Notes: generated by a model not told the origin, from the letters alone. A stretch of 62,675 nt of DNA from Acidobacteriota bacterium (GCA_036507075.1 DASXQR010000105.1:1-62675), one strand, 5' to 3'; shown: positions 929 to 62,522, counted from the first letter of the stretch. Numbers and translations: made by a program.

Positions 929-974
929 GAGGGATCGAGGGACGGAGGGACTGAGGGACTGAGGGATGGAGGAT
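929..974 (+). repeat. Solo arm of octamer family (GAGGGANN)x5.7
   Basis: gagggatc gagggacg gagggact gagggact gagggatg gaggat; the junction of the last units gives GGAGG just before ATG 979. Confidence 0.9.
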
Positions 975-978
975 TCAA

Positions 979-2238
979 ATGAGAATCTGGCGACGCATCA
1001 GTCATTTCCTGGTGTTATGGCTATGCCTGTCCTGCCTTTTGGCGGCTCAGGGCAACTTCTACCTGAAGAACGGGGACCGTGTCGTCTTCTACGGCGACAG
1101 CATTACCGACCAACGGCTCTATACAACGTTTGTTGAAAGCTACGTAGTGACCCGGTTTCCCGGAATGAATGTGAGCTTTGTTCACTCCGGCTGGGGTGGA
1201 GATCGCGTCACCGGTGGCGGCGGAGGACCCGTCGACCAGCGGCTTCAGCGGGATGTGATTGCCTACAAGCCAACCGTAGTGACTGTGATGTTGGGAATGA
1301 ACGATGGTAGTTACAGGGCTTTTGACTCGGCAATTTTCGACACTTACAAAAAGGGCTACCAGCATATTGTGGAAGTGCTCAAGGACGCGCTGCCGGGAGT
1401 GCGACTGACATTGATTTTGCCGTCTCCCTTTGATGATGTAACCCGGGCTCCTAACTTTGAAGGAGGGTACAACAAGGTACTGGTGCGCTATGGGGAATTC
1501 GTTCAGGAGCTTGCGCGCAGCCACAACGTTGATACGGCCGACCTGAATACTTCAGTCGTCGAGTCGCTAAAGAAAGCGCAGAGCATCGATCCGGCGGCCG
1601 CCCAGAAACTGATCCCCGACCGTGTTCACCCCGGAGCGGCGGGCCACTTGCTGATGGCCGCAGCCTTGCTTAAAGCCTGGAATGCCCCGGCAGTCGTCTC
1701 GAACGTGGAGATTGATGCGAAAGGTCGCCGCGCGGTCAAGGCTGAAAATGCGCGTATCGAACAAATCACAGCGGATTCCGGCCTTTCGTGGAACCAACTG
1801 GACATGGCGCTGCCGCTTCCCGTCGACCTTAACGAACCCACGGTGGCTCTGGGTGTCAAGGCGTCGGATGTGATCGATAGTTTGAACCGTCAAATGCTGC
1901 GAGTTGTGGGGCTGCCGGGCCCGCGCTACACACTCAAGATCGAAGGCAGGGAAGCGGGCAATTTTTCGCGGGAGCAGTTGGAAGACGGAATCAATCTCGC
2001 TTTGTTGCCGACTCCCATGCTGCAGCAGTCGCTTTCAGTGCACGCTCTGACACTCAAGCACAATACCATCCACTTTGCCCGATGGCGTCAGGTTCAGGTG
2101 CCCTTGCAGAAAGACACTTCCGGCGCGATTGGCAGGGCTCTCGCCGCCCTGGATGACCTGGATGCCGACCTGGTACGCCAGCAGCGGGCGGAGGCACAGC
2201 CGAAGATTAGAAAGTTTGAACTTGTTCCGGCTAATTGA
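979..2238 (+). CDS. Secreted SGNH/GDSL hydrolase family protein
   Basis: Signal peptide; blocks GDSIT, G-GGD, LGMND, DRVHP. Confidence 0.9.
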   Translation: MRIWRRISHFLVLWLCLSCLLAAQGNFYLKNGDRVVFYGDSITDQRLYTTFVESYVVTRFPGMNVSFVHSGWGGDRVTGGGGGPVDQRLQRDVIAYKPTVVTVMLGMNDGSYRAFDSAIFDTYKKGYQHIVEVLKDALPGVRLTLILPSPFDDVTRAPNFEGGYNKVLVRYGEFVQELARSHNVDTADLNTSVVESLKKAQSIDPAAAQKLIPDRVHPGAAGHLLMAAALLKAWNAPAVVSNVEIDAKGRRAVKAENARIEQITADSGLSWNQLDMALPLPVDLNEPTVALGVKASDVIDSLNRQMLRVVGLPGPRYTLKIEGREAGNFSREQLEDGINLALLPTPMLQQSLSVHALTLKHNTIHFARWRQVQVPLQKDTSGAIGRALAALDDLDADLVRQQRAEAQPKIRKFELVPAN

Positions 2239-2249
2239 AGGCCTTCGGA

Positions 2250-3095
2250 ATGGACCTTGAGCATCGTATTCAGGAACTGGAAGAAAATAAGGGTCGCAAT
2301 CCTCGAACGGCAATTCAGCGTGTGTGCGCGGCCATTGAAGTTTTTCTCCGCGAAGCACTGGACCTGGAGCACGGCGCCTCGCTGGCGGTTCTGCAGGAAG
2401 AATTCCGCAAATGTTATCCCGACGAAAAGCAGCTCTATTACAAGATTGTGACGCTGCGCGAATTGAGAAACGTCATAACGTTCACATCGCGCCAGCCTTG
2501 GCCCGGGGACGAGGAGATCGCAATCGGGATTTTGAAGAACTTTGCCCATCTGGATTCGTCTGGAACGGCTTCCGGAATACCTGCGACGGAGGGCGTGATT
2601 TCAGCTGCCGATGAGGACGCAAGGCAAGCCGGTGGGGGAACCGAAAAGCCAAAGCTCAGGCTTGTTTCAGCCAATCGCCAGGCAGTGCCGGAACCTGATA
2701 GCAGGCGATTTGAGGCCGCCGACTTTGAGAGGCTGGTCGAATATCACTTCGGGGATTTGTTCGCCAAAACCTTTTCGCGCCAGGTGCCCTATCTCTCCGA
2801 TGGGAGCAGCTATCAGTTTGACCTTATTTCGACCGATCGCGAAGTGGTTATAGATTGTTTGAGCCCGGCCTGGAATCAGTCGGGAGAGTTTCCCCTCTCA
2901 CTGGACTCGGCCGCTCTTTGGGCGACCGACTGGCTGAAGAGATGCACGGCGGACCGTCGTTTGCTGGTACTGCAAGACGACGTTTTGCGGCGGGCAAGTC
3001 TGGCGGCCGTTTTTGTTCACCGCAACCACAAAGACCTGGAAGGAATCCAAGTCTGGGTCTACGCCAAGGGGCTTTTCTGGAAACTAAGCCCGTGA
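2250..3095 (+). CDS. Hypothetical two-domain protein: degenerate HEPN-like N-terminus plus PD-(D/E)xK-like C-terminus
   Basis: 281-aa ORF; LRELRNVITF, linker, then FE...FDLIS.D...IDCLS..W..SG..P; domain assignment by eye only. Confidence 0.65.
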   Translation: MDLEHRIQELEENKGRNPRTAIQRVCAAIEVFLREALDLEHGASLAVLQEEFRKCYPDEKQLYYKIVTLRELRNVITFTSRQPWPGDEEIAIGILKNFAHLDSSGTASGIPATEGVISAADEDARQAGGGTEKPKLRLVSANRQAVPEPDSRRFEAADFERLVEYHFGDLFAKTFSRQVPYLSDGSSYQFDLISTDREVVIDCLSPAWNQSGEFPLSLDSAALWATDWLKRCTADRRLLVLQDDVLRRASLAAVFVHRNHKDLEGIQVWVYAKGLFWKLSP

Positions 3096-3107
3096 TCAAG
3101 GCTAAAG

Positions 3108-3187
3108 GTCTGAAAGTCGAATGTCGAAAGTCAAAAGCCGGACGCGGGTGCTTTTGACTTTCGACCTTCGACCTTCGACTTTCAGAC
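3108..3187. repeat. Palindrome with heptamer (GTCGAAA/GTCGAAG) tandem arms
   Basis: Left gtctgaaagtcgaatgtcgaaagtcaaaagc (3108-3138); right gcttttgactttcgaccttcgaccttcgactttcagac (3150-3187); between convergent genes. Confidence 0.9.
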
Positions 3188-3193
3188 TCTATT

Positions 3194-5351: not shown

Positions 5352-5442
5352 GATCTGCCCTCCGGGAAGGGTTAACTGCTTAAGCCGACAAATTATATCC
5401 GAAATGGGCGCAGTCGAAGCGCGCCCCGGGTGCTAAGAACTG

Positions 5443-5593
5443 AACCGCCAAGAACGCCAAGAGCGCCAAGGTTTAAAATGGATCTAAACCATTTACGTCC
5501 GGCAAACAGCTCGAAATATCAGACCAATACAACGTCCTCGGGGGTGACACCGAAGTGATTATACTCTTGGCGTTCTTGGCGTTCTTGGCGGTT
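5443..5593. repeat. Palindrome with nonamer (AACCGCCAAG-AACGCCAAG) arms
   Basis: aaccgccaagaacgccaagagcgccaag (5443-5470) ... cttggcgttcttggcgttcttggcggtt (5566-5593), ~95-nt spacer. Confidence 0.9.
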
Positions 5594-5645
5594 TCCGTTT
5601 TTTGAACTTGAAGCCGTCAATCATCAGGCTTAAGCTCGATTTCCA

Positions 5646-7094: not shown

Positions 7095-7414
7095 GAAGTC
7101 GAAAGCCGAACCGCGCGCGTAAGCAAGCGGACCCTTCCGTCATTTGTCATTGGTCACCGGTCATTGGTCACCGGTCATTGGTCATAGTTCGTCCAATCAT
7201 CGTTGATTCTGTCATCATTCATTCCGTCATCGTTCAAAAGACAGAGGTTATAGTTCAAAAGTGGTACGCCAGAAATCATCGGTTAGTTTGTGACCGGTGC
7301 CGATAGTGGTGACCAATGACTGCTGACTACTGCTGACCAATGACCAATGACCAATGACGGGAGGGTCCGCTTGCTCACGCGCGCGGTTCGGCTTCCGGTC
7401 TTCGACTTTCGACC
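7095..7414. repeat. Three-layer nested palindrome: GTCGAAA remnants / REP-like arm / GTCATTG heptamer arms
   Basis: aagccgaaccgcgcgcgtaagcaagcggacc-ttccgtcatt ... aatgacggagggtccgcttgctcacgcgcgcggttcggctt, enclosing (gtcattg)n ... (caatgac)n. Confidence 0.9.
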
Positions 7415-8189: not shown

Positions 8190-8203
8190 GGCCGGTATTT
8201 TAC

Positions 8204-8390
8204 AAGAAAGTCGAAAGTCAGCACCGCATAACAGTACCGCGATCCGTTAGGTCGCGGCGTGCCAGACACAGTTCCCTGCGATAAGCGACAACAGTCAGGG
8301 CGAGGCGCTTTTTAGCAAACCGCTGCCGACTTTATCTGGTGCGCCGCGACGTAACGGATCGCGGTACTGTTGGTGACCTTGGACTTTCAG
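8204..8390. repeat. REP-like inverted pair inside GTCGAAA remnants
   Basis: aacagtaccgcgatccgttaggtcgcggcg (from 8230) ... cgccgcgacgtaacggatcgcggtactgtt (to 8371), flanked by aaagtcgaaagtca / tgaccttggactttcag. Confidence 0.85.
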
Positions 8391-8788
8391 GGCTTAGACT
8401 TGGACGCCGCCTCCTTTTCAACCTGCTCGAGGAGTTTCTGCGTAAAGCGAGCCATTGCTTTTGTTCGGCGGATCAAATTCGCTTTGTCTGGATCCATGGC
8501 GGCCAGCTCCGCCAAGGCTTGCAGACGCATCTGCAGTTCATCGGAAAAGCGGCGGCTTTCCGTTGCGATTGCGCTCCACGCATCCGCCGTTTCCCTCAGT
8601 TGGGAGTTAATCATTTCCGCCAGGCCCTTTCGTTCGTTCTCAGGCAACTGACGCGCCTTCTCCTGAAGTTCCCAGCACGTGACGACTGCGCCGTGAAAAC
8701 GGTTGATGTCCTGCCGCAGCCGGTTAGCCTGATCCTGGTTGTTACTGCCCGCTTTGTTGCGCCGTCCTTTGAACCACGTTGCACCCAT
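8387..8788 (-). CDS. Hypothetical helical/coiled-coil protein
   Basis: Longest minus-strand ORF in the gap, charged helical composition; start uncertain (only 32 bp to the divergent gene). Confidence 0.45.
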   Translation of the reverse strand: MGATWFKGRRNKAGSNNQDQANRLRQDINRFHGAVVTCWELQEKARQLPENERKGLAEMINSQLRETADAWSAIATESRRFSDELQMRLQALAELAAMDPDKANLIRRTKAMARFTQKLLEQVEKEAASKSKP

Positions 8789-8820: not shown

Positions 8821-9303
8821 ATGAAGACCAGGTTTATTTTGATCATCGTATTTGCGGCGGCTTTTACTCTCCTTGGAGCCGACAACGTAGTCAAAAAGGC
8901 GGGAAAGGGAATTAAGAAGGGCGCCGTCGAGGTTGCCGACAAGGCCGAAGATGCAAAAGACAAGACGGTAAGCGGCAGCAAGAAAGTGGGCAAGGCGACA
9001 AAAAAAGGCGCCGTCGAAGTGGCCGACAAAGCTGAAGACGCCAAAGATAAAACTGTAAGCGTAAGCAAGAAAGTTGGCAAAGCGACAAAAAAGGGAGCGG
9101 TCGAAGTGGCCGACAAGGCTGAAGACGCCAAAGACAAAACGGTAAGCATAAGCAAGAAAATCGGCAAAGGGACAAAAAAGGGAGCCGTCGAAGTCGCTGA
9201 CAAAACCGAAGACGCCAAAGACAAAACTGTCAGCGGGACCAAGAAGGCCGGCAAAGCCACCAAAAAGGGAGCGACGAAAGTTAAGCACGCAGTCACTCCC
9301 TGA
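8821..9303 (+). CDS. Secreted Lys/Ala-rich tandem-repeat (LEA-like) protein
   Basis: AGGAGG RBS; signal peptide; four 29-aa (87-bp) repeats KKGAVEVADKAEDAKDKTVSxSKKxGKAT at 8914, 9001, 9088, 9175. Confidence 0.85.
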   Translation: MKTRFILIIVFAAAFTLLGADNVVKKAGKGIKKGAVEVADKAEDAKDKTVSGSKKVGKATKKGAVEVADKAEDAKDKTVSVSKKVGKATKKGAVEVADKAEDAKDKTVSISKKIGKGTKKGAVEVADKTEDAKDKTVSGTKKAGKATKKGATKVKHAVTP

Positions 9304-9508
9304 CCGCCCAAGATTTTTTGAGAGTGGAGAGACGGCCCGAGGGCCGTCTCAGGCGGAGTCGACGGCAGGGTTAATCCAGGCAACATTCCTAGACGGCCCT
9401 TAAGCCGTCTCTCCACTCATCTGGAGGTCTGGTAACTCCCTGTCCGCCCAAGATTTTTGAGAGGAGAGACGGCCCTCAGGCCGTCTTTCCACTCATCTGG
9501 AGGTCTGG
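9295..9508. repeat. REP doublet plus tandemly duplicated collapsed copy
   Basis: Copy 1 (9295-9432) has gtggagagacggcccgagggccgtctc ... agacggcccttaagccgtctctccac; copy 2 (9435-9508) has the same flanks with a single hairpin. Confidence 0.85.
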
Positions 9509-9644
9509 CGAAGAGCTATCGCCCTGACGCCTGACCTCAACTCGACGTTTTCCGCTCCAGGCCTGACGCAAAAAGATTTCATCCATTAGCCTTTTCGTAT
9601 TTTTCGACACATTCACTTATATTCTGGCAAACTATCCTCTAACA

Positions 9645-11285
9645 ATGGCATCGGATGCGCGCCTGACCGTGGAATTGCTGATGAAGGCTCTTCGGGGACT
9701 GGTTCTCGAAGGGGTCGACGTGGGTGCCGATCGGGAACAGGTTATCGAAGACCTGGCCCATCGAGCGCTCAGCGGCCTCGGACTGTCGATCAAGTATCTC
9801 CTGGCAAAGAATGCAGAAGCAGTCGTAAGCGGCCTGGGAACCTTCTCGCTGCGGAACGGCCAGATTCTCTACCAACCGGATGATGATCTGTTGGAATACG
9901 TGCTCTTGTCCGAGCCGAATTCAGAACGCCGCTCGGTGCTGACCGCGATGGAGCTGATCCGAAACCTGGAAACGGCCGCTTCGCTGATCGGATTGGTGCG
10001 AGAGCATTTGGAGACGCTTCAGATCCCGGCGCAGCCCCGCACCACTGATGAAGAGATGATGCTGACCGCCTTTGGTGAGGTGCCTGCGAAAAGACTGAAA
10101 AGTTCAGTAGAACGCCTCCTGGCCGACATTATGGTGCAGTTCAAAGCCGCCGGGGCTCCACTGAGTCTTGGCACCCGGCAGCCGTCGGCCGGATCGGGGG
10201 AGACGATCCCCTCCGGCGCCGAAGTTTCGATTCAACAGGATTTTGCCGGCAGCAAAGCTATTCCACCCGCCGACGCTGCGGCCCCTGCGTCATTGCCACG
10301 GTTTGAACGAGATAATCCTGCCGCCGGGTCCGTTTTGAGTGATGCGAATACCGGAGCCGGCTTAAAAGGCTCTGCGAATCCACCGCCTTCGGTGGCACAT
10401 CTGTCTCCCGAAACCGCCACCCCCACTATGGCAAATGCCCCGTCTCGGGAAGCGGCACAAAACGAGTCGATGGGGCAGTTTTCTTCCACTCCGCCGGAAT
10501 ACCGTGCCGGTCATCCCATTGACGTAAAGAATATGGACGCAGCCGAGATATTGCGAATATTGCGTGAGGACCCAGTTGAGGTCTCGATGCCGGCGGTCAA
10601 ACAGAGCTCGGAGTCCGTCGTGTCCAAGCCCCCTGTTAACCCCCTCGAGCAACAGGCAGCCCGTCCCTCTGGCGAATCGGTGGGGATCAGCGCATCGCAG
10701 CCGGAACGGGCCGCACCGCCGCCGGCGGAGTTCACCGGTATCACCGAGTTTCCGGATTTCGCCGTCGGCCATGATGCCGCCTCCGGCTACTTTGCACCGA
10801 TAAGCCAGCCGGCGGCCGAAACTCGAAACGTTCAGGAAGCTCGAAATCTTCCGGTGGAATCTCCTGCTTCATCCAGGAATGTGGTGGCTTTCCCGGACAA
10901 AGAAACTGCGCGCCATGTGTCAGAGCGCGAAGAGCAGCCGGCTGTCCAGCAGGCTCAATCCGGGCATCGCGCCGATCCGCGGGTACCATCTAAGGGTACC
11001 GTTATGACCGTCAAGGACCTGGACAGCCTGTTCGAACAGTCGCTCAACGTTCTTAATCCCGTACACTCGGGCGAACCTGCTAAAGACCCTGCTCCCCCCG
11101 AACCACCGGCTGGAGATCTGCCCCTGTCCCTGCGTGCACACGAGGCTTTGAGAAGAACCGGGATCGCTACTCTGCCGGCGATTCTGCGCTTGAGTCAGGC
11201 AGAGCTGGTCGCCGCAGTCGGTATGGAAACAGCCGAAGAAATCAAAAACATGCTTCAGATTCGGGGTCTGGCCCTGCGAAGCTGA
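9645..11285 (+). CDS. Hypothetical protein: HU-like N-terminal motif, long Pro/Ala/Glu/Ser linker, C-terminal RNAP alpha-CTD-like domain
   Basis: VVSGLGTFSLR near the N-terminus; C-terminus DLPLSLRAHEALRRTGIATLPAILRLSQAEL...GMETAEEIKNML...GL. Confidence 0.75.
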   Translation: MASDARLTVELLMKALRGLVLEGVDVGADREQVIEDLAHRALSGLGLSIKYLLAKNAEAVVSGLGTFSLRNGQILYQPDDDLLEYVLLSEPNSERRSVLTAMELIRNLETAASLIGLVREHLETLQIPAQPRTTDEEMMLTAFGEVPAKRLKSSVERLLADIMVQFKAAGAPLSLGTRQPSAGSGETIPSGAEVSIQQDFAGSKAIPPADAAAPASLPRFERDNPAAGSVLSDANTGAGLKGSANPPPSVAHLSPETATPTMANAPSREAAQNESMGQFSSTPPEYRAGHPIDVKNMDAAEILRILREDPVEVSMPAVKQSSESVVSKPPVNPLEQQAARPSGESVGISASQPERAAPPPAEFTGITEFPDFAVGHDAASGYFAPISQPAAETRNVQEARNLPVESPASSRNVVAFPDKETARHVSEREEQPAVQQAQSGHRADPRVPSKGTVMTVKDLDSLFEQSLNVLNPVHSGEPAKDPAPPEPPAGDLPLSLRAHEALRRTGIATLPAILRLSQAELVAAVGMETAEEIKNMLQIRGLALRS

Positions 11286-11462
11286 ACCGCCAAGAACGTG
11301 AACCGCCAAGAGGCCAAGAACGCAAAGGACCGGATTTCAGATTACGGAATGAGATTTGAAGTAATCGCACGTGTGTGGCGAGAGACCGTCGCTGAGAAAA
11401 TCTGATCCTTGGCGTTCTTAGCGTTCTTGGCGGTTCAGTTCTTGGCGCTCTTGGCGGTTCAG
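11282..11462. repeat. Self-nested nonamer (AACCGCCAAG) palindrome
   Basis: Two left termini (11282, 11299) and two right termini (11437, 11462); the terminal TGA is the stop of both flanking genes. Confidence 0.9.
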
Positions 11463-14442: not shown

Positions 14443-15950
14443 GCGTGGAATCGTTTCGGCGCAATATTTATCAAACGTCGCTTGCTCTACTTACCGATCT
14501 TTACCAGCTCACCATGGCGTACGGTTACTGGAAGGCCGGAATGGCGGAGCACCAGGCTGTCTTCAATTTGTACTTTCGCAAGCACCCCTTTCAAGGAGGT
14601 TTCTCGATTGCGTGCGGATTGGAGCAGGCGATCGAGTACATTCAAAAATTCAAGTTTGACGAGAGCGATCTGTCTTTCCTCGCGAGGCTCTGCCCTGCCG
14701 ATTCAAAGCCGCTTTTCGAACCGGCGTTCGCAGCGTTTCTGAGAGAGCTGAAACCAAGGTGCGACGTGGATGCCATGCCGGAAGGCACGGCTGTTTTTCC
14801 TCACGAACCGCTGTTGCGTGTCACTGGGCCACTGGCTTTTTGTCAAATCCTGGAAACGCCATTGCTCAACATAATCAACTTCCAGACGTTGATCGCGACC
14901 AAAGCGGCACGAATCTGCCTGGCAGCGGATGGAGATCCGGTTCTGGAGTTCGGACTTCGTCGCGCCCAGGGACCCGACGGCGGAATCAGCGCCAGCCGCG
15001 CAGCGTTCGCCGGCGGCTGTGCCGGCACTTCAAACCTGCTCGCGGGCAAACTCTTTGGCTTGCCGGTCAGGGGAACCCATGCTCACAGTTGGGTAATGGC
15101 ATTCGATACGGAGGAAGAGGCATTCCAGAAATACGCCGAAGCGATGCCGGACAACTCGATTTTTCTGGTGGACACGTACAAGACCATCGAGGGTGTGCGC
15201 AATGCCATCAGAGCGGGCGCGTGGCTGCGAAGCAAAGGGCATCGGTTGGCAGGCATTCGTCTGGACTCGGGAGATCTGGGCGCTTTGAGCATCCAGACGC
15301 GCCGCATGCTGGACGATGCGGGCTTCCCTGAGGCTTTGATTGTGGCCAGCGGCGATTTGGATGAATACGGCATCCGCAAGCTGAAACTGGAGGGAGCAAA
15401 AATCGACGCCTGGGGAGTCGGCACGCGACTGGTAACGGCTTTCGATGAGCCGAGCATGGGCTGCGTTTACAAACTGGCTGCGCTGCGTAAGCCGGGTGCG
15501 CCTTGGAAACCGAAGTTGAAGATTTCTGACGGATCTGAAAAGAGTTCAATACCCGGCATCCTGCAGGTGCGGCGTTATCGAACCGGCGGCCAATACTGCG
15601 GTGATGTGATCTTCAATGAAATGGATCCCCCGGGCCGGAAGATCGACGCAGTCGGATTGAAAAAGCCGGAAGCGCGTGTCTCGTTCGACGAGCGGGACGT
15701 TTTTGAAAACCTTCTGAGCCCCGTAATGCGGGACGGGTCCATCATTGCTGAGCTTCCGGAACTGGTGCAAATCAAGGACAGGACGCAGCGGCAGTTGGAA
15801 TGTTTAAAGCCGGAAGTCAAACAGTTCACAGGAGCCGAAGTTTATCCGGTTGGTTTGGAACAGCGGTTACACGAACTGAGAGCCCTTCTTATGGAAGTCG
15901 GAAAGTCGAAGGTCGAAAGTCGAAGTCAAAGGTCGATAGTTGAAAGTTGA
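14439..15950 (+). CDS. pncB: Nicotinate phosphoribosyltransferase
   Basis: [47 protein letters not shown] overlap with the pncA stop; last ~15 aa are encoded by the repeat array. Confidence 0.95.
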
Positions 15951-16240
15951 AAGTTGAAGTCAAAGGTCGAAGGTCGAAACTCGAAAGTCTGAAGGTCAAA
16001 AGCCAGAAGCCGAGCCAGCCGTAGACGGACACATTGCATTCACCGCAGAGCCGCAAAGAACGCCGAGTTTACGCAGAGTTTCATCACACCCTCAGCGAAA
16101 CTTGGCGTTCTCGGCGGCTCTGCGGTGAACATAGTGTATTCTGTTCCGATTTGGGCAACACGCCCTTACGCGCGCGGCGCGGCTTCGGATCCAGAATTCA
16201 GCCTTTCGACTTTCGACCTTCAGACTTTCGACTTTTAGAC
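15895..16240. repeat. Three-layer nested palindrome: GTCGAAA arrays / degenerate REP / CACCGCAGAG nonamer arms
   Basis: Outer 15895-16003 / 16203-16240; middle gaagccgagcc / ggcgcggcttc; inner 16039-16078 / 16091-16129. Confidence 0.9.
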
Positions 16241-16992
16241 TAAGATTTGGGTTTGTCGGCGGGGGACGCCGTGGGTTGCAACTCTTTTAATCCGGCCTTG
16301 GCACCGTCGCGCGCCCGCTCCAGATTTTCCTCTGCTCGCCGCACTGCCTTGTACAGGTCTATGTCCTTGTCTTTCTGGGCATTTTCCTTCAGGTCATGCA
16401 ACACGCCGAAATCCTGGGCGGTGTAAGTTTCCAGTACCTGAAGGGACTTCAGAATTTCCTTCGGGTCGCTGCGCTTGTACTGAACCCGCTCGTCGATGTT
16501 TGTCATGATGGCGCCCAGCGACTGCGAAATGCCGTTTACCAGATTTGGCAGCGTGTGAAACTCGAGCGGGTTCTCCGGTTCCTTGGGTTCCGCCTTGGTC
16601 TTTGGCTCCTTGGAGATCCTCTTTTCCAGCCAGCGCGGCATACCGCGCTTCTTTTCTTTGTCCTCCGGGACCTTGATGTCGTATTCTTTGCCTGACCGCC
16701 GGCCGATTTCGCGAATTCGATCTGTGGCGATGCGCAGATATTCCCGTGTTCTTGGCAACAGTTCCTGAGCCTCACGGATTCGGTCCGCCTCGCCCTCGGT
16801 CAGATAATCGCCGCGCTGGGCGTGCGAGGGGGATGCCAGAGCGCCGAACGCTACCCACAGGCCGAGCAAGCGAAGCGCGAGAAAAGATGCGGCCTGGCGT
16901 CGCATCCTCAAGGCGCGCGGGCGCGGCGACGGGCGGGCGAAAGTCCGCTCCGCCAGCGATACCGTTTTCTCCTGGTTGTCCTCGCTGCTCAT
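16240..16992 (-). CDS. Hypothetical exported helical protein
   Basis: Hydrophobic segment then QRGDYLTEGEADRIREAQE; downstream of argS; start uncertain. Confidence 0.7.
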   Translation of the reverse strand: MSSEDNQEKTVSLAERTFARPSPRPRALRMRRQAASFLALRLLGLWVAFGALASPSHAQRGDYLTEGEADRIREAQELLPRTREYLRIATDRIREIGRRSGKEYDIKVPEDKEKKRGMPRWLEKRISKEPKTKAEPKEPENPLEFHTLPNLVNGISQSLGAIMTNIDERVQYKRSDPKEILKSLQVLETYTAQDFGVLHDLKENAQKDKDIDLYKAVRRAEENLERARDGAKAGLKELQPTASPADKPKS

Positions 16993-19460: not shown

Positions 19461-19663
19461 GGATTGAGGGATTGAGGGACTGAGGGATGGAGGGACTGAG
19501 GGATGGAGGGACTGAGGGATGGAGGGATTGAGGGATTGTCGCTCGTTCCCCTGCTTCTTCATTCCCCCACTTTCCACTCTCACTTACGCTCTACATCCCT
19601 CCATCCCTCCATCCCTCTATCCCTCAATCCCTCGATCCCTCCATCCCTCAATCCTCAGTCCCT
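19461..19663. repeat. Octamer (GAGGGAYK) palindrome
   Basis: About 9 units at 19461-19538 and about 8 complementary units at 19594-19663. Confidence 0.93.
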
Positions 19664-19722
19664 ATGGCGCGCTTTATGGTAAGAATAGTGCCATCTGAAA
19701 TTACCCGGAACCGACAATTGGC

Positions 19723-22537: not shown

Positions 22538-22577
22538 AGGAGGAGACGTTCGACGTGCAGAAAGGGGGTGCGGTGAT

Positions 22578-36922: not shown

Positions 36923-36929
36923 TGGTTCT

Positions 36930-41159: not shown

Positions 41160-41231
41160 GATACGACCCCATCGGCTGGATAGCGATCTGGTTTGGCTGC
41201 CATCGGGAAAAAGATTTCAGAAGACAAAACC

Positions 41232-41522
41232 GACCACGTCAACGTCGACGTTTATCGTCTACGGCCACGTGCACGTCAATGTCCACGGAACAGGTCCAAG
41301 CTGCTTGAGAGATTTAGAGCTTAATCATTTTGGTCAACATCGACAGGATGCGTTCGAGGAGTTGCCTCGCATGCCTAACCGTGCTGCAGGCAAACTTGCG
41401 AGTTTTTCTTCGTTAGCGTGAAGGTGGTCGTTGACGTCTGTCGTTGACGTGCACGTGCACGTGACCGTCCTCGGCTTTTTCTTTGGTTGCGGCCTACGGC
41501 CGGGCTGTGCCTCTGTGGTGAA
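41232..41522. repeat. Hexamer (CACGTC/GACGTG) palindrome with composite terminus
   Basis: Arrays 41232-41287 and 41417-41468; minus-strand caccacagaggcacagcccggccgtaggccgcaaccaaa at 41482-41520. Confidence 0.85.
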
Positions 41523-41642
41523 GTCCTTCCTCGACGGGCAGCACAAACCAGACCCAAAACCGCCCCGCGCCCCGCCTTTTCATCCTAAAATGGTAATATT
41601 AAAGTTTTTTGGCTTGATCGTTGCATCTGGGAGTTTGTAACT

Positions 41643-43128: not shown

Positions 43129-43140
43129 TACTGATGGGCT

Positions 43141-43344
43141 TTTCACCACAGAGATACAGCGTGGCTGTAGGCCGCAACCAAAAAGCCGTCGACGTTCACG
43201 AGCACGTGCACGTCTACGACCACGTCTTGGGTCTACGAACACGACCAGGCACAACAGCCCCGCAGTTCTGTACAGTCTGTGACGAATCGAGCGAAGTCGT
43301 AATCGTGGACGTTGACATGCACGTGCTCGTGAACGTCGACGGCT
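43141..43344. repeat. Composite terminus plus hexamer palindrome
   Basis: caccacagagatacagcgtggctgtaggccgcaaccaaa, then perfect 27-bp IR 43184-43210 / 43318-43344. Confidence 0.88.
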
Positions 43345-43384
43345 CTGAAAAACTTTGCCAAAAAACAAGAAGTGGTCAACACGC

Positions 43385-47311: not shown

Positions 47312-47333
47312 GAAGGCTTCAGCAGAAACAACT

Positions 47334-47472
47334 TGAACCGCCAAGAACGCGAAGAACGCTAAGTTATACGAGCGCACTCCGGGCTACCGAATCGGGCGCG
47401 TGGCGGCAATAGCAAGGTCATGGGGGGCAAATTAATCTTAATGCTTGGCGCTCTTCGCGTTCTTTGCGGTTC
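47334..47472. repeat. Nonamer (AACCGCCAAG) palindrome
   Basis: tgaaccgccaagaacgcgaagaacgctaag ... cttggcgctcttcgcgttctttgcggttc. Confidence 0.88.
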
Positions 47473-47493
47473 CAGTTCTTCGCGCGGTGAAGC

Positions 47494-48678: not shown

Positions 48679-48696
48679 TGTCTTTACTTAAATCTT

Positions 48697-48727
48697 TTCT
48701 TCGCGTTTTCGCGCCTTCGCGGTTCAA
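48697..48727 (-). repeat. Solo nonamer arm
   Basis: Minus strand ttgaaccgcgaaggcgcgaaaacgcgaagaa; no partner arm seen. Confidence 0.7.
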
Positions 48728-48749
48728 CGCCGCTGACATTCTCCTGAAT

Positions 48750-50579: not shown

Positions 50580-50610
50580 GACGGTTCGGTCCTTGATTTC
50601 GTGCATCAGA

Positions 50611-50770
50611 GTTTAACCACAAAGACACGAAGGACACAAATGGAAGGCGCGGGGCAGGCAGAGGCCGGTCAACTTTTCCAAAAGTGAAAGCGGCCAAGGA
50701 TTTTCTGGCTGACCAGCCTCTGCCTGCCCCACGTCTTCCTTTTGTGCCCTTTGTGCCTTTGTGGTTAAAC
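50611..50770. repeat. Nonamer (ACCACAAAG) palindrome with inner REP-like pair
   Basis: gtttaaccacaaagacacgaaggacacaaa ... tttgtgccctttgtgcctttgtggttaaac; inner ggggcaggcagaggccggtca / tgaccagcctctgcctgcccc. Confidence 0.9.
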
Positions 50771-51949
50771 TGGGCTCTCGAGGAATGCCGTGGAAGCAAA
50801 TTTGACAAAGCGGCGCAACAATGAAGGGTGACACCCCGCCCACCGCGCTCCCCTTAGCAGAAGTGACGCGGGCAGCAGCCAGTTAGGCAGACCCAGGATC
50901 AGGTCTGCCCGTCTTGTGAACAGCAGGGAGCGCTCGTTGGCCGGACGCCGCCGCCGCTCGTAAGCGGCGAGCGGATCTTCCGAGCCCTGCAGAAAAATGT
51001 CGGCCAGAGCGCATGCGTCTGCCACCGACATATTAGCGCCTTGGCCGCCCGCAGGACTCACCGGATGGGCGGCATCCCCCATGATGAAGGCTCCCTGAGC
51101 GCCGTAGCGGCGAGCGTGGCCCCAGGGGCGGCGCACTCGAACCAGATCGGTCCGAAAATCCCTTCCGCACAGTACTTCGGTGATCTCAGGCTCGGATGAA
51201 CGAAAACGCTCCCAGCCTTCGGGGGCCGAAACTTTTCGCTTACCTTCGAAAACATCAGGTGAGGCGGCAACCAGCCCGGCGCCCTTATTCTGTGGTAGAG
51301 GCAGAGCCAGCATTGCGACGAATCCAGAGGCGCTGTCCGGATTCAGCCACACCCGGCCGACAGCGGCCGGAAGGCTGCCCGGCCATTGAAATTCAAAGCA
51401 GAGGAAATCCAGAGGAAATACTTTCGTATCTATCTCGATCCCGCAGGCGGCCCTGACAAGCGAGTGGACGCCGTCATCGCCGATGGTGAATTGAGCAGTC
51501 ACGTCGCGCACCGACCCGTCCCGTCCGTCGCGGGCCTTGACTCCGATGATCCTCTCGTTTTGTTTCAGCACCGCCACGACCTCCATACCCCGGCGCAATT
51601 CGAACAAACCACCGGCGAGAAGCTGTTCGCGCGTGCGATTGGGATTAGTTGTCCAGGGCTGCACCTGGATCTGATTCAATAGTTCCGAATCGATAGAGAT
51701 TACCGCTTGCCCGCGTCGAGTCGCCCGAACGCCTCGGAGCGGAAGCATCGCGTCGCGTTCCAGGTTTTCCCGCGGAAGCAGCGAAAACAGAACCTGCGCC
51801 GTAGCCGGCCACAGAACCTCGGGCCGCACCCAGTTGGGAGGCGCCGTGCTCTTTTCCAGGACAATGACTTTCTTTCCGCCGCTGGCCAAAAGCCCGCCTA
51901 CGACAGCTCCCCCGATCCCGCCTCCCACGATTATGAAATCCGTGTCCAT
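50765..51949 (-). CDS. FAD-dependent monooxygenase (UbiH/PheA-like)
   Basis: VGGGIGG, GDDG.HS.VR, GDAAHPVSPAGGQGANM...DA. Confidence 0.9.
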   Translation of the reverse strand: MDTDFIIVGGGIGGAVVGGLLASGGKKVIVLEKSTAPPNWVRPEVLWPATAQVLFSLLPRENLERDAMLPLRGVRATRRGQAVISIDSELLNQIQVQPWTTNPNRTREQLLAGGLFELRRGMEVVAVLKQNERIIGVKARDGRDGSVRDVTAQFTIGDDGVHSLVRAACGIEIDTKVFPLDFLCFEFQWPGSLPAAVGRVWLNPDSASGFVAMLALPLPQNKGAGLVAASPDVFEGKRKVSAPEGWERFRSSEPEITEVLCGRDFRTDLVRVRRPWGHARRYGAQGAFIMGDAAHPVSPAGGQGANMSVADACALADIFLQGSEDPLAAYERRRRPANERSLLFTRRADLILGLPNWLLPASLLLRGARWAGCHPSLLRRFVKFASTAFLESPV

Positions 51950-52086
51950 GCTTTTGAACTTTTAAGGAGCCATTTACGGCAGGGCCATTTTCTTGTCGCC
52001 TGGGTGTCTTCGAGAATATGGCTATTCTATCGCCATTTAGATTTAGATTTGAGGATTGGGGGGATCGTGACTGTGCCGGTCGCGGG

Positions 52087-52195
52087 CACGGATTTCAACG
52101 AATTTCCGCGAATTTCACGAAGTTGTCCGAAAAATTGGCGTAATCAGTGTAATTCGTGTAATTAGTGTAATTCGTGTAAATTTGCGCGAATTCGT
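52087..52195. repeat. Nonamer (CACGAATTW) palindrome
   Basis: cacggatttcaacgaatttccgcgaatttcacgaa ... (taatcagtg/taattcgtg/taattagtg)n. Confidence 0.8.
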
Positions 52196-52197
52196 AC

Positions 52198-52722
52198 TCA
52201 ATACTTTTTCCCGTGCTTCTCGATGTACTTACGCGCAAACTCACTCACCGGTGAACCCTCGCGCATGCCGACTTTCTTGGCTTCTTCATTGGCGGCTTCC
52301 ACAGTCCAATGGTCTCGGATCACCCGCCGGATCATCCAGAACCCTCCCACGCGGCCGGCTGACGCGCAATGGATGAACGCAGGGCGATTCTGCGGGTCAT
52401 CGGTGATCTTCAGGAACTCGGTGACCTGCTCTTCCTTCGGATCGGAAGGAACGACGGCTATGTTGAAGTAGCGAAGTCCTAATTGTTTGGCTTTTGTCTC
52501 CTCGTCAGTTGCGCGGTGCTCGCCCGGCTGGCGCAGGTTGATGATCGCCTTGACGCCTTCGGCCTTCAATTGCGCCAGTTGCTCAAGTTCGGGTTGGCCC
52601 CCGGTGCAGAATTGATCATTGACCCGCAGAAAATTGCGGATGGACGACAGGTCCTGCCCGGCCAGAACGGATATGGCGGCAAAGAGTAGGATCAAAGGAA
52701 GACAGATTTGTTTTTTCATCAT
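52198..52722 (-). CDS. Secreted DUF442/BLH-type phosphatase-sulfurtransferase-like protein
   Basis: GGQP, IINLR, HCASAGR; signal peptide. Confidence 0.85.
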   Translation of the reverse strand: MMKKQICLPLILLFAAISVLAGQDLSSIRNFLRVNDQFCTGGQPELEQLAQLKAEGVKAIINLRQPGEHRATDEETKAKQLGLRYFNIAVVPSDPKEEQVTEFLKITDDPQNRPAFIHCASAGRVGGFWMIRRVIRDHWTVEAANEEAKKVGMREGSPVSEFARKYIEKHGKKY

Positions 52723-55566: not shown

Positions 55567-55576
55567 CGGAGGAATT

Positions 55577-55673
55577 GAACCGCAAAGAACGCCAAGAACG
55601 CTGAGTGAACCCTTTCAGTTCGGCGCCGCACATCAATTCAAGTGTTAGCGTTCTTTGCGTCCTTCGCGGTTCA
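55577..55673. repeat. Nonamer (AACCGCAAAG) palindrome inside the mla operon
   Basis: tgaaccgcaaagaacgccaagaacgctgag ... ttagcgttctttgcgtccttcgcggttca. Confidence 0.88.
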
Positions 55674-55683
55674 GCTTTTGTTT

Positions 55684-57805: not shown

Positions 57806-57975
57806 AACCTGTGAAAAAATTCACCACAAAGGCACAAAGAACACAGAGGGCTCCGGCTTTCAGTGGTCCGCTCAGATGGAAATGATAGATTGAAAGGCAT
57901 TTAAGCCAGAGCGGACCATTGAAAGCCGAAAGCTTCTTTGTGTTCTTTGTGCCTTTGTGGTGAATTTCACAGGTT
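57806..57975. repeat. Nonamer (ACCACAAAG) palindrome with inner IR
   Basis: aacctgtgaaa..aattcaccacaaaggcacaaagaacacag ... tttgtgttctttgtgcctttgtggtgaatttcacaggtt; inner ggctttcagtggtccgctc / gagcggaccattgaaagcc. Confidence 0.9.
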
Positions 57976-57978: not shown

Positions 57979-58926
57979 ATGCGTATTGTATTCATGGGCA
58001 CTCCGGATTTTGCAGTGCCTGCATTAAAGGCGCTGGCACAATGGAAAGGCGAGGAAATTGCCGGTGTTATCTGCCAGCCCGACAAACCACAGGGGCGGGG
58101 CAAACGCATTGTTCCGACGCCAGTGAAAAAGGCGGCCGGCGACTTGGGCTTCCCGGTGTATCAGCCGCGACGAATTAGGAGCGGAGAAGGCGAGCAGCTT
58201 CTTTCGGTCCTTGCTCCTGATCTGATTTTCGTAGTGGCCTACGGGCAAATACTTCCCAAATGGTTTCTTGACTTCCCGCGGCACGGCGCCATCAACCTGC
58301 ATGCTTCACTGCTTCCCCGGTATCGCGGCGCGGCTCCACTACAGCGGGCGGTTTTGAATGGAGAAACAAAGACCGGCTTCACTCTGATGATGATGGACGA
58401 GGGAATGGATACCGGCCCCATTCTGGCGCAGACCGAATTTGAGATCTTCGAAAATGAAACCGCCGGGGAACTGGCTGCCCGGGCCGCGATAATAGGAGCG
58501 GAGTTTGCCGTGCGAGAGCTGCAGGCTTATTTGAAGCATGACCGCAAGCCTGTTCCGCAGGATTCATCGCTTGCCACATACGCGCCTCCGCTGCGTAAGG
58601 AGGAGGGCGCGCTGAAATTTCAGGAGCCCAGCCGGCGGTTGCACAATATGGTGCGTGCTCTCAATCCATGGCCCCTGGCATTCTGCATGTGCAAGCGGTC
58701 GATGCTCTTTGTGCACCGGACGCACCTGATCGAAGACTCCCGCGCTTCCCGCTCAGCGGGAGAACTTGTGGACATTGAAGAAGACTCACTGCTGATTCAG
58801 TGCGGAACCGGGTTGCTCGGTTTCGATCTGGTCCAGTCGCCAGGCAAAAGGATCATAAGCGGCAGGGACTTTGCCAACGGAATGCGTCTGAAGCCCGGTG
58901 TGAAGTTTGAAAACGGTAATTCTTAG
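57979..58926 (+). CDS. fmt: Methionyl-tRNA formyltransferase
   Basis: FMGTPDFA, QPDKP.GRG, VAYGQIL, NLHASLLPRYRGAAP, MD.GMDTG. Confidence 0.96.
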   Translation: MRIVFMGTPDFAVPALKALAQWKGEEIAGVICQPDKPQGRGKRIVPTPVKKAAGDLGFPVYQPRRIRSGEGEQLLSVLAPDLIFVVAYGQILPKWFLDFPRHGAINLHASLLPRYRGAAPLQRAVLNGETKTGFTLMMMDEGMDTGPILAQTEFEIFENETAGELAARAAIIGAEFAVRELQAYLKHDRKPVPQDSSLATYAPPLRKEEGALKFQEPSRRLHNMVRALNPWPLAFCMCKRSMLFVHRTHLIEDSRASRSAGELVDIEEDSLLIQCGTGLLGFDLVQSPGKRIISGRDFANGMRLKPGVKFENGNS

Positions 58927-59101
58927 CCACGAAGCCACGAAGACACGAAGTTTAACAGTTCAACCAGAAGTGATGCGCTGGTTAAAAGCCGAAGGTAGTG
59001 GGCTTTTAGTGTCATGACCCCACTGCAAAGCCGAAACGTTAATGAGAAGTGCTATTGAAAGCTACATAACGACCCCCTCTGTGCCTTTGTGGCTTTGTGG
59101 C
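58926..59101. repeat. Nonamer (GCCACGAAG) palindrome
   Basis: gccacgaagccacgaagacacgaag ... ctctgtgcctttgtggctttgtggc. Confidence 0.8.
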
Positions 59102-59111
59102 GATTTTTTCC

Positions 59112-60407: not shown

Positions 60408-60437
60408 GTAGTGGGTCAGTTTAGCCATTCCTGGACT

Positions 60438-60530
60438 TCTCGGCGTAAACTTAGCGATCTCTGCGGCTCTGCGGTGAAAGGCGTCGGAATTCACCGCAGA
60501 GCCGCAGAGATCGCTGAGGTTACGCCGAGA
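60438..60530. repeat. Outward-facing CACCGCAGAG palindrome
   Basis: tctcggcgtaaacttagcgatctctgcggctctgcggtgaa ... ttcaccgcagagccgcagagatcgctgaggttacgccgaga. Confidence 0.9.
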
Positions 60531-60558
60531 CTTCACAATTCTGTGGTTGAACAACTTT

Positions 60559-61299
60559 TTACCGGAATACCTCATATGGATCGATGGCGGTTCCTTGCCA
60601 CCAGCGCTTCTCGGCATCCAGTTTGAAAATGGCAAAGTGAAGGTGGGGCGTGTTCGGAGGAGCGTTGCCCGAAGTGCCCACGTAGCCGATCACCTGTCCC
60701 TGTCTGACTGAATTACCCTCACGGAGGCCATCAGCGTACTTTTCCAGATGGGCGTAGTAATAGCAGTACTTTTCACCCTGATCGAACTGATAAATCGTAA
60801 TTCCACCGGCTTTGCTTGTGAACAGCTTGGCGATCTTGCCGTCTTCCACGGCGCGCACCGGTGTGTTTCTCGGCGCCAGGATGTCGGCCGCTTCGTGCAG
60901 CCGGGTACCGCGCAATTCGTGGAATGAACCCCGCAGCGTTTCCGGCTTAACTCCTTCGAGAGGCATCAGAAGCCGCCAGCCCCGCAGCTCTGTAACCGAT
61001 TCGTTTATCGTTTCGGGGAGTTCAACGGGCTCGTGTTCAACCGGCTTCTTATCCTCCAGCGGGAGTTGTGAAGCGCGCTGTCCCGGGGAGTCCGGACGCA
61101 GCTCCGCTCGGGAGGGTTGATTGGCCGCATTCTGAGTTGGGTTGGCCGGTCTTGCTTTGCTGCTCCAGACTTCGTGTCCGGGATTAGGGTTGATCAGCAA
61201 TGCCACTCGCGGGAAAACGTAGAGGGCACAAAACACGCCGGCAAAGAAACTCGCCGCGACAAGCAGCGCGGTCTTCCTTCCCCTGCGCTCCAGGATCAT
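60559..61299 (-). CDS. M23 family peptidase
   Basis: HEAAD (HxxxD), YYAHL, IGYVG.SGNA, PHLHF; ATGA overlap with the upstream gene. Confidence 0.92.
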
Positions 61300-62345
61300 T
61301 GAAAGATCACTGGAGTGCCCGGCTTCACATATGAGGCAACCTTCATGGCATCCCAGTTGGTGAGACGCACACAACCGTGTGATTCCGTGTGTCCAATTCT
61401 TCCCGGCTCGGGCGTCCCGTGGAGACCGTAATGAGGCCGGTCAATGTCGATCCAAACAACGCCCACCGGATTGTTCGGCCCCGGCGGAATCTTCGCCTTC
61501 GAGTGTTTCGGATTGGCATCCCAAAACAAGTCTGGATTGTAATTAAAAGTCGGATTTTTTTGAACACCGGTGACTTTCCAGTTACCGACCGGCAGGGGAT
61601 CATGCTCGCTGCCGGTGGTGACGGGAGCAAAGAATCGCACGCTTCCATCCTGTCCCTGAACGATCAGAGCGGAATGATTCCTGCTGACGACAATCGTAAC
61701 AGGACCGGCGGAAACCGCAGCCATCCCCTTGTTACCCTTGGAGCCTTCCGTCGCGGCAATATTGGGAACCTTGATCTGCTCACCCGCGGCGAATCGCGTG
61801 CCTGGGTTTAACTGCCGGAGCAGCGATGGTTTGACGTGGAACTTTTCTCCCAGCGCCTCTGCCGCTGAAGTGAAGTTGAGCGCCGCCAGCTTTGACTGTT
61901 GCACCAGGTCCCGGGGGATTTGGCGGGTGAAAGGTCCCGCCACATCCTGGGGTGTGATTGTGTAGCTGATGAGCGTGTCTGCTGCCTGGGCGATGCCGAG
62001 AGCCTGTCGTGTAGCTGCGTCGGCGGTACCAGTGGAGGGAATTCCACGAGCCTTCTGAAAGGCTGCCAGTGTGGTGCGCGTGTTGGCGCCTTCGCGCCCA
62101 TCGATTTCACCGGGTGAAAAACCGTTGCGGTCAAGAAGTATCTGAAGGTCCAAGGCTTTCAACTCCGCGCCTGAATTCCCCGGGATCACCGCTTTGGAAC
62201 CCGATATATCGGGGCGTTTATCGGGATTCCGCGTGGCCTTTGCGGTAGCTGGAGGAATGATTGCGTACGCCATTATCAGTAAGAACACAAGGAGAGCCGG
62301 TGTTGAAAAGACTCTCCTCATTCCCGAAATCGAATCCGCATCCAT
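61296..62345 (-). CDS. L,D-transpeptidase with peptidoglycan-binding domain
   Basis: LQ..L...[27 protein letters not shown]...SHGCVRL. Confidence 0.93.
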
Positions 62346-62477
62346 TCCGACTTCTCCTCCAGTCAGAATAGCACCGAATGCGAGAGTGGGAGATTCTCTG
62401 TGTCCTCTGTACTACTAATAATGCAAATTTTCGCGGCACGGGACAATTCTAGTCATAAAAGACCAACAAAAACCGTC

Positions 62478-62522
62478 CACGAGCACGAGCACGAGCACGC
62501 CAACGTCAACGTCAATGTCACT
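62478..62522 (+). repeat. Hexamer (CACGAG/AACGTC) array, partner arm degenerate
   Basis: cacgagcacgagcacgagcacgccaacgtcaacgtcaatgtc. Confidence 0.75.

Follow-up and report, generated by a model that had tools for sequence, protein, structure and literature searches.

REPINs, hairpins built from repetitive extragenic palindromic sequences (REPs), and their REP-associated tyrosine transposases (RAYTs) form the closest described counterpart of the elements considered here, hairpins with tandem-repeat arms that recur between the genes of a 62,675-nucleotide stretch of DNA from an Acidobacteriota bacterium (hereafter the window). In the accessible text of the REPIN–RAYT and REPtron sources (PMC5581495, PMC6006769 and 10.1101/2021.07.10.451892), REPINs are gene-less intergenic hairpins of inverted repeats and a spacer, present in hundreds of copies, with one low-copy cognate gene per repeat family that is flanked by the same repeat, and with several families per genome. 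The genome that holds the window resembles them in these respects, with 749 arm pairs. The Escherichia coli RAYT gene yafM was elevated when competence was induced (PMC5581495 citing Sinha 2009, in the excerpt available), and according to the available part of a REPIN review no study ties REPIN function to the RAYT beyond the cleavage of single-stranded DNA (ssDNA).

Other described repeats share parts of this organization. The S23p-type intervening sequence (IVS) of Coxiella 23S rRNA has a PF05635 gene, terminal inverted repeats, decaying open reading frames (ORFs) and a variable number of tandem heptamers before the start codon, according to the available portion of PMC4990558. Geobacter metallireducens has several classes of tandem 7/8-mer sites that occur as opposite-strand pairs at variable spacing (PMC2700814, text available in part), and heptamers that are abundant, intergenic, close to gene ends and lineage-specific are described from Beggiatoaceae, cyanobacteria, Bacteroidetes and Xanthomonas in the accessible parts of PMC4679880 and PMC4692102. 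Avd, an accessory protein of diversity-generating retroelements (DGRs), is a four-helix-bundle pentamer whose homology to the four-helix-bundle proteins discussed below is stated in the accessible part of PMC10053308.

Gene-bearing cassettes and gene-less hairpins

The window is the whole of contig C105 of a 6.1-Mb genome (G000; 56% GC, 95.7% complete) whose DNA is present in soil metagenome runs; other C-numbers are likewise contigs, and G001–G005, G011, families f1, f6 and f13 and genus g26 served for comparison. Reading all of its larger gaps, we counted 27 sites between positions 926 and 62525 (Table 1), comprising about 21 inverted pairs of tandem arms, two tail-to-tail pairs (23311 and 60436), three unpaired arms (926, 48690 and 62465) and one REP-like palindrome (9300). 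An earlier note, written from the sequence alone, had described about 28 sites, mostly inverted pairs of tandem arms; that picture stands, except that one site has no tandem arms, and the coexisting periods of 6, 7, 8, 9 and 10 nucleotides that it listed are all present. Its statement that the window holds no mobilizing gene is also supported: Pfam found none, and no transposase, nuclease cassette or four-helix bundle, among 54 window ORFs, with three called ORFs (including 30028-32412) outside the scan.

Elsewhere in the genome, the same arms enclose genes. Profile searches of G000 gave 8 TIGR02436 (four-helix-bundle), 6 TIGR04256 (GxxExxY) and 12 Y1_Tnp hits, and arm pairs with a gene inside, which the earlier note had proposed to list, were found around four-helix-bundle and GxxExxY genes in the layout left arm, promoter-like motif, gene, right arm. 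Four-helix-bundle genes have GCAGGAG (C199), GTCCGTT-type (C88), GTCATTG (C225) or CACGTC (C37) arms, a PF05635 ORF lying between inverted ends with tandem arms in all four cases, and frameshifted copies lie in CGGGTT (C73) and GGAGHGG (C231) arms. GxxExxY genes have CGCCAAG (C83), CACCAAG (C37), CACGAAT (C140) or CACGGAT (C145) arms, although for some of these genes the arm is distinct on just one side. The families CACGTC, GTCATTG, CGCCAAG, CACCAAG/CACAAAG, CACGAAT and CACGGAT all flank genes of one kind or the other in this genome. Inverted tandem arms were found at 17 of 30 unselected four-helix-bundle loci of the phylum compared with none of 30 dprA loci. Both arms were present at 10 of 13 GxxExxY loci, including loci from Bacteroidota, Ignavibacteriaceae, Chthoniobacterales and Pyrinomonadaceae, a count made by eye because these arms are degenerate and a strict arm detector recovered 1 of 15 loci.

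Several elements retain traces of such a gene. The element at 41200-41530 matches the flanks of the four-helix-bundle cassette on C37 at 84–87% identity and keeps the last 21 codons of its gene, a remnant (41317-41379) that is too short for Pfam and was identified by tblastn. This spacer has 11 further copies in G000, indicating that the deleted cassette was amplified. C82:21435 retains the arms, the motif and both gene ends of the C231 cassette, C192:81788 consists of arms and motif with no gene, and deleted or frameshifted cassettes occur on C73, C231, C152 and C82. The arms shared with gene-bearing cassettes, and derivatives that keep arms and gene ends, bear out the earlier guess that the elements are empty cassettes, and the hairpins of the window very probably descend from one-gene cassettes. 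The 41200-41530 family, C82 and C192 recall the small transposable elements with inverted repeats known as MITEs in having a gene-bearing parent, internal deletion and amplification. MITEs such as Correia and ERIC are internal-deletion derivatives with inverted ends that are amplified in trans and often lie near stop codons; the parents here, in contrast, encode TIGR02436 or TIGR04256 proteins and no known transposase. A multi-copy element of G001 (about 12 hits whose motif text is almost identical, for example L137, L143 and L148; also G000:C13:40060) has the motif and REP-like arms with no intact gene, and may be an amplified promoter-bearing derivative.

Cassette proteins and arm units

The predicted structure of the GxxExxY protein (pLDDT 90) has a PD-(D/E)xK core nearest to Cas4/RecB-type nucleases. 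Structural matches are moderate (3IJM best, with Z 8.2 and a root-mean-square deviation of 3.3 Å over 100 aligned residues; Cas4 4IC1, Z 7.7), and because no Foldseek hit fell under E 0.001 we assign the protein to no nuclease subfamily; a PDB sequence search returned chance ankyrin-like matches only. E27, D67, E77, K79, Q91 and Y95 (QxxxY motif) are invariant in 58 GxxExxY sequences, and the model combines the PD-(D/E)xK fold with the E...D...ExK catalytic set. Of 7999 candidates scored, 7998 were GxxExxY hits. The four-helix bundle matches the XCC0516 pentamer 2GSC and, below cut-off, the Avd profiles bAvd (E 7e-12) and NF033474 (E 1.5e-10). Avd binds nucleic acid and is not known to be catalytic.

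In trees restricted to full-length rows, with 21 four-helix-bundle and 10 GxxExxY sequences of five genomes, each of four groups is a clade: the proteins with CACGTC arms, drawn from three genomes (support 100/100), those with GTCGAAA/GTCCAAA/GTCGCAA arms (100/100), those with GTCATYG arms (98/91) and the GxxExxY proteins with CACGGAT arms (98/94). Arm unit follows protein clade across related genomes, and cognates for the GTCGAAA and GGAATGY families are present in G001/G003.

This coupling bears on a rival account, in which co-induced HUH (RAYT/IS200-like) enzymes move all families and the four-helix-bundle and GxxExxY proteins are passengers or specificity adaptors. Ten Y1_Tnp genes share the cassette motif, REP-like layers are nested with tandem arms at 7095 and 8200, and RAYTs cleave single-stranded REP hairpins, as the accessible RAYT literature has it. 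However, the HUH genes have REP-like palindromic flanks of their own, mostly without tandem arms, the arm unit tracks the four-helix-bundle or GxxExxY clade, and the active site of GxxExxY is invariant; we consider movement of all families by HUH enzymes distinctly improbable.

A motif shared with competence genes

Inside the left arm, the cassette genes are preceded by a bipartite motif in which an AT-rich stretch is followed by TTCGCAGATTT, some 10 unconstrained bases and CRGTTATGT. With 13 cassette and HUH genes as seeds, a matrix found 58 sites scoring at least 27 in G000 and none in the reversed genome. By Pfam/NCBIfam, the 52 ORFs behind the best 59 sites include 13 competence or recombination genes (ComEA, ComEC, ComF, ComM, DprA, a minor pilin, RecA, SSB, RadC, RecG, RecQ, UvrD and an ERCC4 nuclease), 10 Y1/HUH, 5 PF05635 and 5 PF13366 (PDDEXK_3) genes, the remaining 19 being remnants, unknowns or unrelated. 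The start lies 5 nt after the motif's last T in 14 of the 52, as expected of leaderless genes.

The motif stands 5' of all 11 cassette genes tested in G000; in G001 it is present at 9 of 13 and in G003 at 12 of 14. By gene type, it was found at 21 of 27 four-helix-bundle loci (34 hits, fragments and duplicates dropped) and 12 of 15 GxxExxY loci (19 hits), two of the remainder lying directly behind dprA. The broken GxxExxY cassettes G001:C383:8799-8996 and G003:C73:3250-3477, right behind dprA and without a motif of their own, look as if they were co-transcribed with it; the latter also precedes a topA-like start.

The exact pattern occurs 37 times in G000, 54 in G001, 30 in G003, 8 in G002 and once in G004. 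It is confined to family f1, with at most 4 hits in each of 116 other genomes, like controls, which rules out a universal motif. In G001–G004 it precedes recA, dprA, comEA, uvrD, radA, integron integrase, Y1 and four-helix-bundle genes. Genus g26, of another family in the same class, has a looser form with the same 17-nt spacer 5' of comEA in 4 genomes and of 17 of 25 four-helix-bundle loci examined (30 fetched, 46 hits), compared with 0–4 at other spacings and 0–3 in control windows. In family f13 an 18-nt variant stands 5' of dprA, comEC and a frameshifted four-helix-bundle gene.

Together, these data suggest that the motif is a competence promoter, which we consider likely, with a link to competence that holds for this class only. 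A set of observations tells against this reading. Because the matrix took its seeds from cassette genes, their scores are partly circular, and the g26 sequences had been inspected before the g26 pattern was relaxed. The motif is absent at 3 of 3 four-helix-bundle genes of G002/G004; outside the class, 1 of 30 four-helix-bundle and 1 of 15 GxxExxY loci have it, a background level, and many distant cassettes seem to lie inside host operons.

The presence of recA, ssb, recG, recQ, uvrD and the ERCC4 nuclease gene behind the motif, together with radA and an integron integrase in G002, could instead mark an SOS-like DNA-damage regulon, with elements moving on replication or repair ssDNA. Yet the motif is also carried by the uptake-specific genes comEA, comEC, comF, comM, dprA and the minor-pilin operon, lexA, which G000 has, is missing from the 59 best sites, and the 52 ORFs scanned include no uvrA/dinB-type gene; a damage regulon is very improbable.

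Further motif-led genes were noted. G000:C17:70859-71573 (L058), a zinc-finger/TPR anti-sigma-like gene, lies behind a weaker motif copy (score 27) within the 3' end of a sigma-70-family gene (C17:71854-72057), and the pair is a candidate feedback loop of a competence sigma factor; G000 has 34 sigma-70 r2 genes. The competence-type motif is also found at the G002 integron integrase genes L129 (TIGR02249-like), L126 and L123, in keeping with a regulon whose enzymes work on hairpins of ssDNA. Behind strong motif copies in G000 stand L003, L011, L018, L024, L027, L028 and L048, which belong to no known family and may be new competence genes or cargo of cassettes; in G001/G003, relatives of L011 and of L018/L027 seem to be motif-led too (L128, L120). 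In family f6, dprA (L096, L101, L109, L119) has a different conserved upstream pattern (GAAATAA, GAAACA, GGATTATAT); a search with it gave 4 hits, all of them dprA itself.

Distribution within the genome and between genera

A family-agnostic scan of G000 found 2092 short arrays, among them 956 of period 7, 569 of period 8 and 301 of period 9, compared with 4 arrays, none of period 6–10, in a 1.5-Mb fifth-order Markov control. With 13 arm-family patterns written from the units seen, the whole-genome scan by arm family that the earlier note had proposed returned 2919 arms, resolved into 749 polarized left–right pairs, 65 reversed pairs and 1291 unpaired arms; a 3-Mb control gave no pairs. Only 3 of the 749 pairs lie wholly within called genes. 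By the crude gene calls made in this analysis, on which this count, the distances to stops and starts and the gap statistics rest, the median element lies 28 nt from stop codons versus 81 nt from starts, and elements fill 25% of convergent (169/674), 14% of tandem (388/2775) and 16% of divergent gaps.

Such placement, near stops and commonest between convergent genes, would suit a domesticated host system, in which the hairpins act at the RNA level (termination, RNase III processing, mRNA stability) or label DNA as self, with the proteins serving as competence-switched, arm-binding regulators. The Coxiella IVS, a cassette of the same layout, is excised by RNase III (PMC4990558, available portion), and a network of repeat-binding proteins is proposed for Beggiatoa heptamers in the accessible part of PMC4679880. 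However, a stop-codon bias is also expected where harmful insertions are selected against, genera do not share conserved sites, families replace one another, and several cassettes are frameshifted or deleted (C73, C231, C152 and C82). We judge domestication quite unlikely.

The earlier note took the spacers to be unique, which is wrong for about half of the elements: 8 of 17 window spacers tested recur elsewhere (1–30 copies), and genome-wide 417 of 619 spacers of at least 30 nt recur, 319 over at least 80% of their length. Because spacers recur, whole elements can be grouped into subfamilies, with as many as 56 copies, scattered over unrelated loci. Nesting of hairpins is frequent. Complementarity beyond the arms (score at least 12) was found for 78 of 749 elements with their own flanks versus 22 of 749 with swapped flanks, and in the 56-copy family pairing was 0.80 for own arms versus 0.73 for swapped arms, which suggests arm-to-arm copying. 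By eye, one subfamily has a CTAG-like end; as this is palindromic, a target duplication would have the appearance of an inverted end. We rejected the idea that spacers are captured host genes (a CRISPR-like memory): a six-frame comparison of 455 spacers with called genes gave 40 hits, and all 30 inspected were repeats embedded in ORFs or cassette genes.

The comparison of orthologous gaps drew on genomes of other genera, among them four of the same family and none of the same genus. The gap that holds 27866-28225 measures 73, 68 and 8 nt between aligned gene ends in G001, G004 and G011, from which the element at the end of tatD (27288) is missing too. 5' of dnaK, G000 has GAGGGAYK arms, G001 has GCAGGAG arms with the 3' remnant of a four-helix-bundle gene, G003 has other arms and G002 none, and one gap that is empty in G000 holds arms in G001 and G005. 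The filled and empty sites that the earlier note had proposed to seek in orthologous regions are there, other genera's gaps being empty or occupied by another family; fixation of elements at orthologous positions, which it had named as contrary evidence, was not seen in the genera compared.

Different families in the same gap of different genera, and the related arms kept at 22345, are also compatible with transformation drive or anti-curing, in which a competence-induced protein biases recombination between filled and empty alleles, by cutting the empty one or protecting the hairpin allele. Elements would in that case pass from cell to cell at one and the same locus and withstand purging by incoming DNA, with new sites rare. 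The competence motif on cassette genes and the relation of the GxxExxY fold to Cas4/RecB nucleases agree with this account. Drive alone leaves unexplained the subfamilies of 11–56 copies with shared non-repeat spacers at unrelated loci, and same-clade cassettes beside different genes in different genomes; we regard both the biased recombination and the resulting same-locus spread as unlikely.

A proposed mechanism

We propose instead that gene-less hairpins are copied to new intergenic sites by the matching protein when the cell becomes competent. The motif would be the promoter of a competence regulon, probably read by an alternative sigma factor. An element would fold as a hairpin on ssDNA, either the incoming transforming strand or a DprA/RecA/ComM intermediate, and the tandem unit of its arms would be read by the cognate protein. 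GxxExxY, with its intact PD-(D/E)xK site, would cut at the hairpin; the Avd-like pentamer would be an arm-binding adaptor for a host or co-induced nuclease. Host recombination and repair would then seal the piece in, only insertions just behind stop codons surviving, and slippage and arm-to-arm copying would afterwards vary the unit number and keep the hairpin symmetric.

We give an even chance to the reading that these are REPIN-like non-autonomous elements with arm-specific non-HUH proteins that are competence-induced and act on ssDNA hairpins, and put protein-driven spread on ssDNA during competence at much the same level. More tentatively, and with somewhat less than even confidence, TIGR02436 and TIGR04256 proteins, neither of them a known transposase, may be the sequence-specific machines of an unrecognized class of mobile element, with every clade reading a tandem unit of its own, wired to competence together with HUH enzymes and integron integrases, whose hairpins replicate on transforming ssDNA.

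Other results pull the opposite way. No movement was observed in the comparison across genera, and in the X1–X4 contigs no strain-level empty site was found, the joints there having short sides and stemming from paralogous copies. Related arms are kept at the 22345 site across two genera (G001 and G003), so turnover can be slow. Inner elements are centred in outer hairpins in 3 of 16 cases versus 2.3 expected by chance, and insertion at hairpin apices was discarded for want of enrichment. To our knowledge, no catalytic residues or activity are known for the four-helix bundle. The commonest window families, GGAATGY, GTCGAAA and GAGGGAYK, have no intact cognate gene in the G000 assembly, and for GAGGGAYK none was identified in any genome examined. 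The family-specific enzymes in trans of the earlier note accordingly fit the coupling of arm unit and protein clade but find no counterpart for GAGGGAYK, and that the proteins are enzymes is a prediction.

If the competence promoter is shared as proposed, it would name the condition in which to look for movement, and arm–clade coupling points to a definite, testable substrate for two orphan families that are widespread.

Elements of the window

Table 1. Hairpins, single arms and palindromes of the window, numbered from its first nucleotide.
Position	Strand	Element
926..972	+	Unpaired 8-mer GAGGGAYK arm, directly 3' of stop codon
3096..3192		GTCGAAA arm pair, convergent genes on both sides; 9 whole-element copies
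5432..5612		CGCCAAG arm pair, spacer 92 nt
7095..7412		Nested hairpin: GTCGAAA remnants outermost, REP-like palindromic layer, GTCATTG arms innermost
8200..8402		REP-like palindrome with GAAAGTC remnants around it
9300..9510		REP-like GAGACGGCC palindromes, no tandem arms; elsewhere flank HUH-transposase remnants (L049)
11283..11462		CGCCAAG arm pair; outer ends supply TGA stops of both convergent genes; unique spacer
15893..16242		GTCGAAA pair around CGCCAAG/CGCAGAG element; inner spacer 19 copies
19461..19665		GAGGGAYK arm pair
22345..22545		GGAATGY arm pair; related GGATTGC arms at orthologous place in G001, G003
23311..23372		Short tail-to-tail CACCAAG palindrome; 138 copies; CACCAAG unit also 3' of GxxExxY gene C37:29125-29538
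27288..27353		GGAATGY pair overlapping 3' end of tatD; site empty in G001, G004, G011
27866..28225		360-nt three-layer hairpin: GTCGAAA outer, CGCCAAG subfamily (23+ copies) inner
29780..30035		GAGGGAYK arm pair, convergent genes on both sides
32516..32655		GAGGGAYK arm pair 5' of dnaK
36712..36932		10-mer CACGGAT/CGCCGAT arm pair (GxxExxY-type arms)
41200..41530		CACGTC arm pair; deletion derivative of four-helix-bundle cassette C37:4140-4481
41317..41379	-	Four-helix-bundle gene remnant in spacer: final 21 codons; 57% identical to L042 residues 93-113; tblastn E 4e-4
43140..43355		CACGTC arm pair; 31 whole-element copies
47320..47492		CGCCAAG arm pair, unique spacer
48690..48730	-	Unpaired CGCGAAG-type arm
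50608..50773		CACAAAG arm pair; 56 whole-element copies; spanned by X1 and X2 contigs
52085..52200		CACGAAT arm pair (GxxExxY-type arms; cf. C140:9337-9759)
55572..55680		CGCCAAG arm pair, unique spacer
57812..57972		CACAAAG arm pair; spacer with inner palindrome
58922..59108		CACGAAG arm pair, unique spacer; spanned by X1 and X2 contigs
60436..60532		Tail-to-tail CGCAGAG palindrome
62465..62525	+	Unpaired CACGAG/ACGTCA arm close to contig end

The element at 27866-28225 folds as a single ssDNA hairpin (z -24), and that at 41200-41530 has a weak overall fold (z -2.2). Rfam gave no match anywhere in the window. Contigs from run X1, possibly the source sample, match 47334-57963 without any difference, and the elements at 50610 and 58922 are spanned, again letter-perfect, by contigs from a second study (X2); for 41000-60900, the part covered by this check, the letter-for-letter agreement of two studies' contigs rules out an assembly artefact. 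Of the ends of contigs in the G000 assembly, 101 of 466 lie inside arms.

The unique spacer at 58952-59072 reads as a broken small ORF; a resemblance of 58952-59014 to BrnA-type antitoxins was set aside, as Pfam gave the 21-residue piece no support. Further REP-like palindromes without tandem arms lie at 12790-12860 and, at the contig end, 62630-62675. The gene at 8821-9303 encodes a lysine-rich, secreted-looking protein of no Pfam family with four 29-residue repeats (87-nt period). A PDZ-GAF-SpoIIE gene (19723-22326) lies between two elements and also between argS and a sirtuin gene, which are adjacent in G001/G003; the G001 copy of the PDZ-GAF-SpoIIE gene is on another contig.

Comparison with known systems

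The system works like REPIN–RAYT but differs from it in enzyme and arm structure. Arms here are tandem 6–10-nt units, whereas REPs, in the accessible text of the REPIN sources, are single 20–40-bp palindromes; the palindromic arm with a GTAG/CGTC foot was not encountered, and only the layers at 9300, 7095 and 8200 are REP-like. The cognates are PF05635/PF13366 rather than HUH/Y1 proteins, the Y1 genes of this genome having REP-like flanks, and empty elements arise by internal deletion and can retain gene remnants. The earlier note had called the elements non-autonomous and distinct from REPs and MITEs; the comparison supports this, with mobility itself a prediction and an architecture closer to REPIN–RAYT than claimed. 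Unlike MITEs, they are associated with no DDE transposase, and their arms are tandem arrays in long hairpins. Inspection of the flanks by eye established no clear target duplication.

The Coxiella IVS is described only from rRNA helix 45 and as RNA that RNase III processes, whereas the G000 cassettes lie between protein genes and not within an rRNA gene; a gene-less family, arm–clade coupling and a competence promoter are not described in the available portion of PMC4990558. The Geobacter sites are read as binding sites of IHF/HU or a global regulator, with no link to cassettes or competence in the accessible text of PMC2700814, the supplementary tables of which may list neighbouring genes relevant to novelty. 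Heptamers of the Beggiatoaceae type differ in being direct repeats with translational or G-quadruplex roles, their pairing and cognate genes not being described in the available parts of PMC4679880 and PMC4692102. DGRs have a reverse transcriptase, none of which was seen in or beside the cassettes or among the 52 motif-led ORFs (no genome-wide search for one was made).

In the open literature, with subscription papers outside our coverage, we found no account of arm-flanked TIGR02436/GxxExxY cassettes, their gene-less copies or a competence promoter. Fragments are in print, namely the paired sites of Geobacter, the heptamers of the Coxiella IVS and a Sxy-induced RAYT; for the combined system no description was found there. 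Arm–clade coupling joins the scattered reports of heptamer repeats and rRNA intervening sequences in one model. The more tentative reading of the two protein families as machines of an unrecognized class of mobile element, if true, would account for the 7-mers of Geobacter, Beggiatoa and cyanobacteria, for how rRNA intervening sequences with an ORF arose and for the time at which REPINs move.

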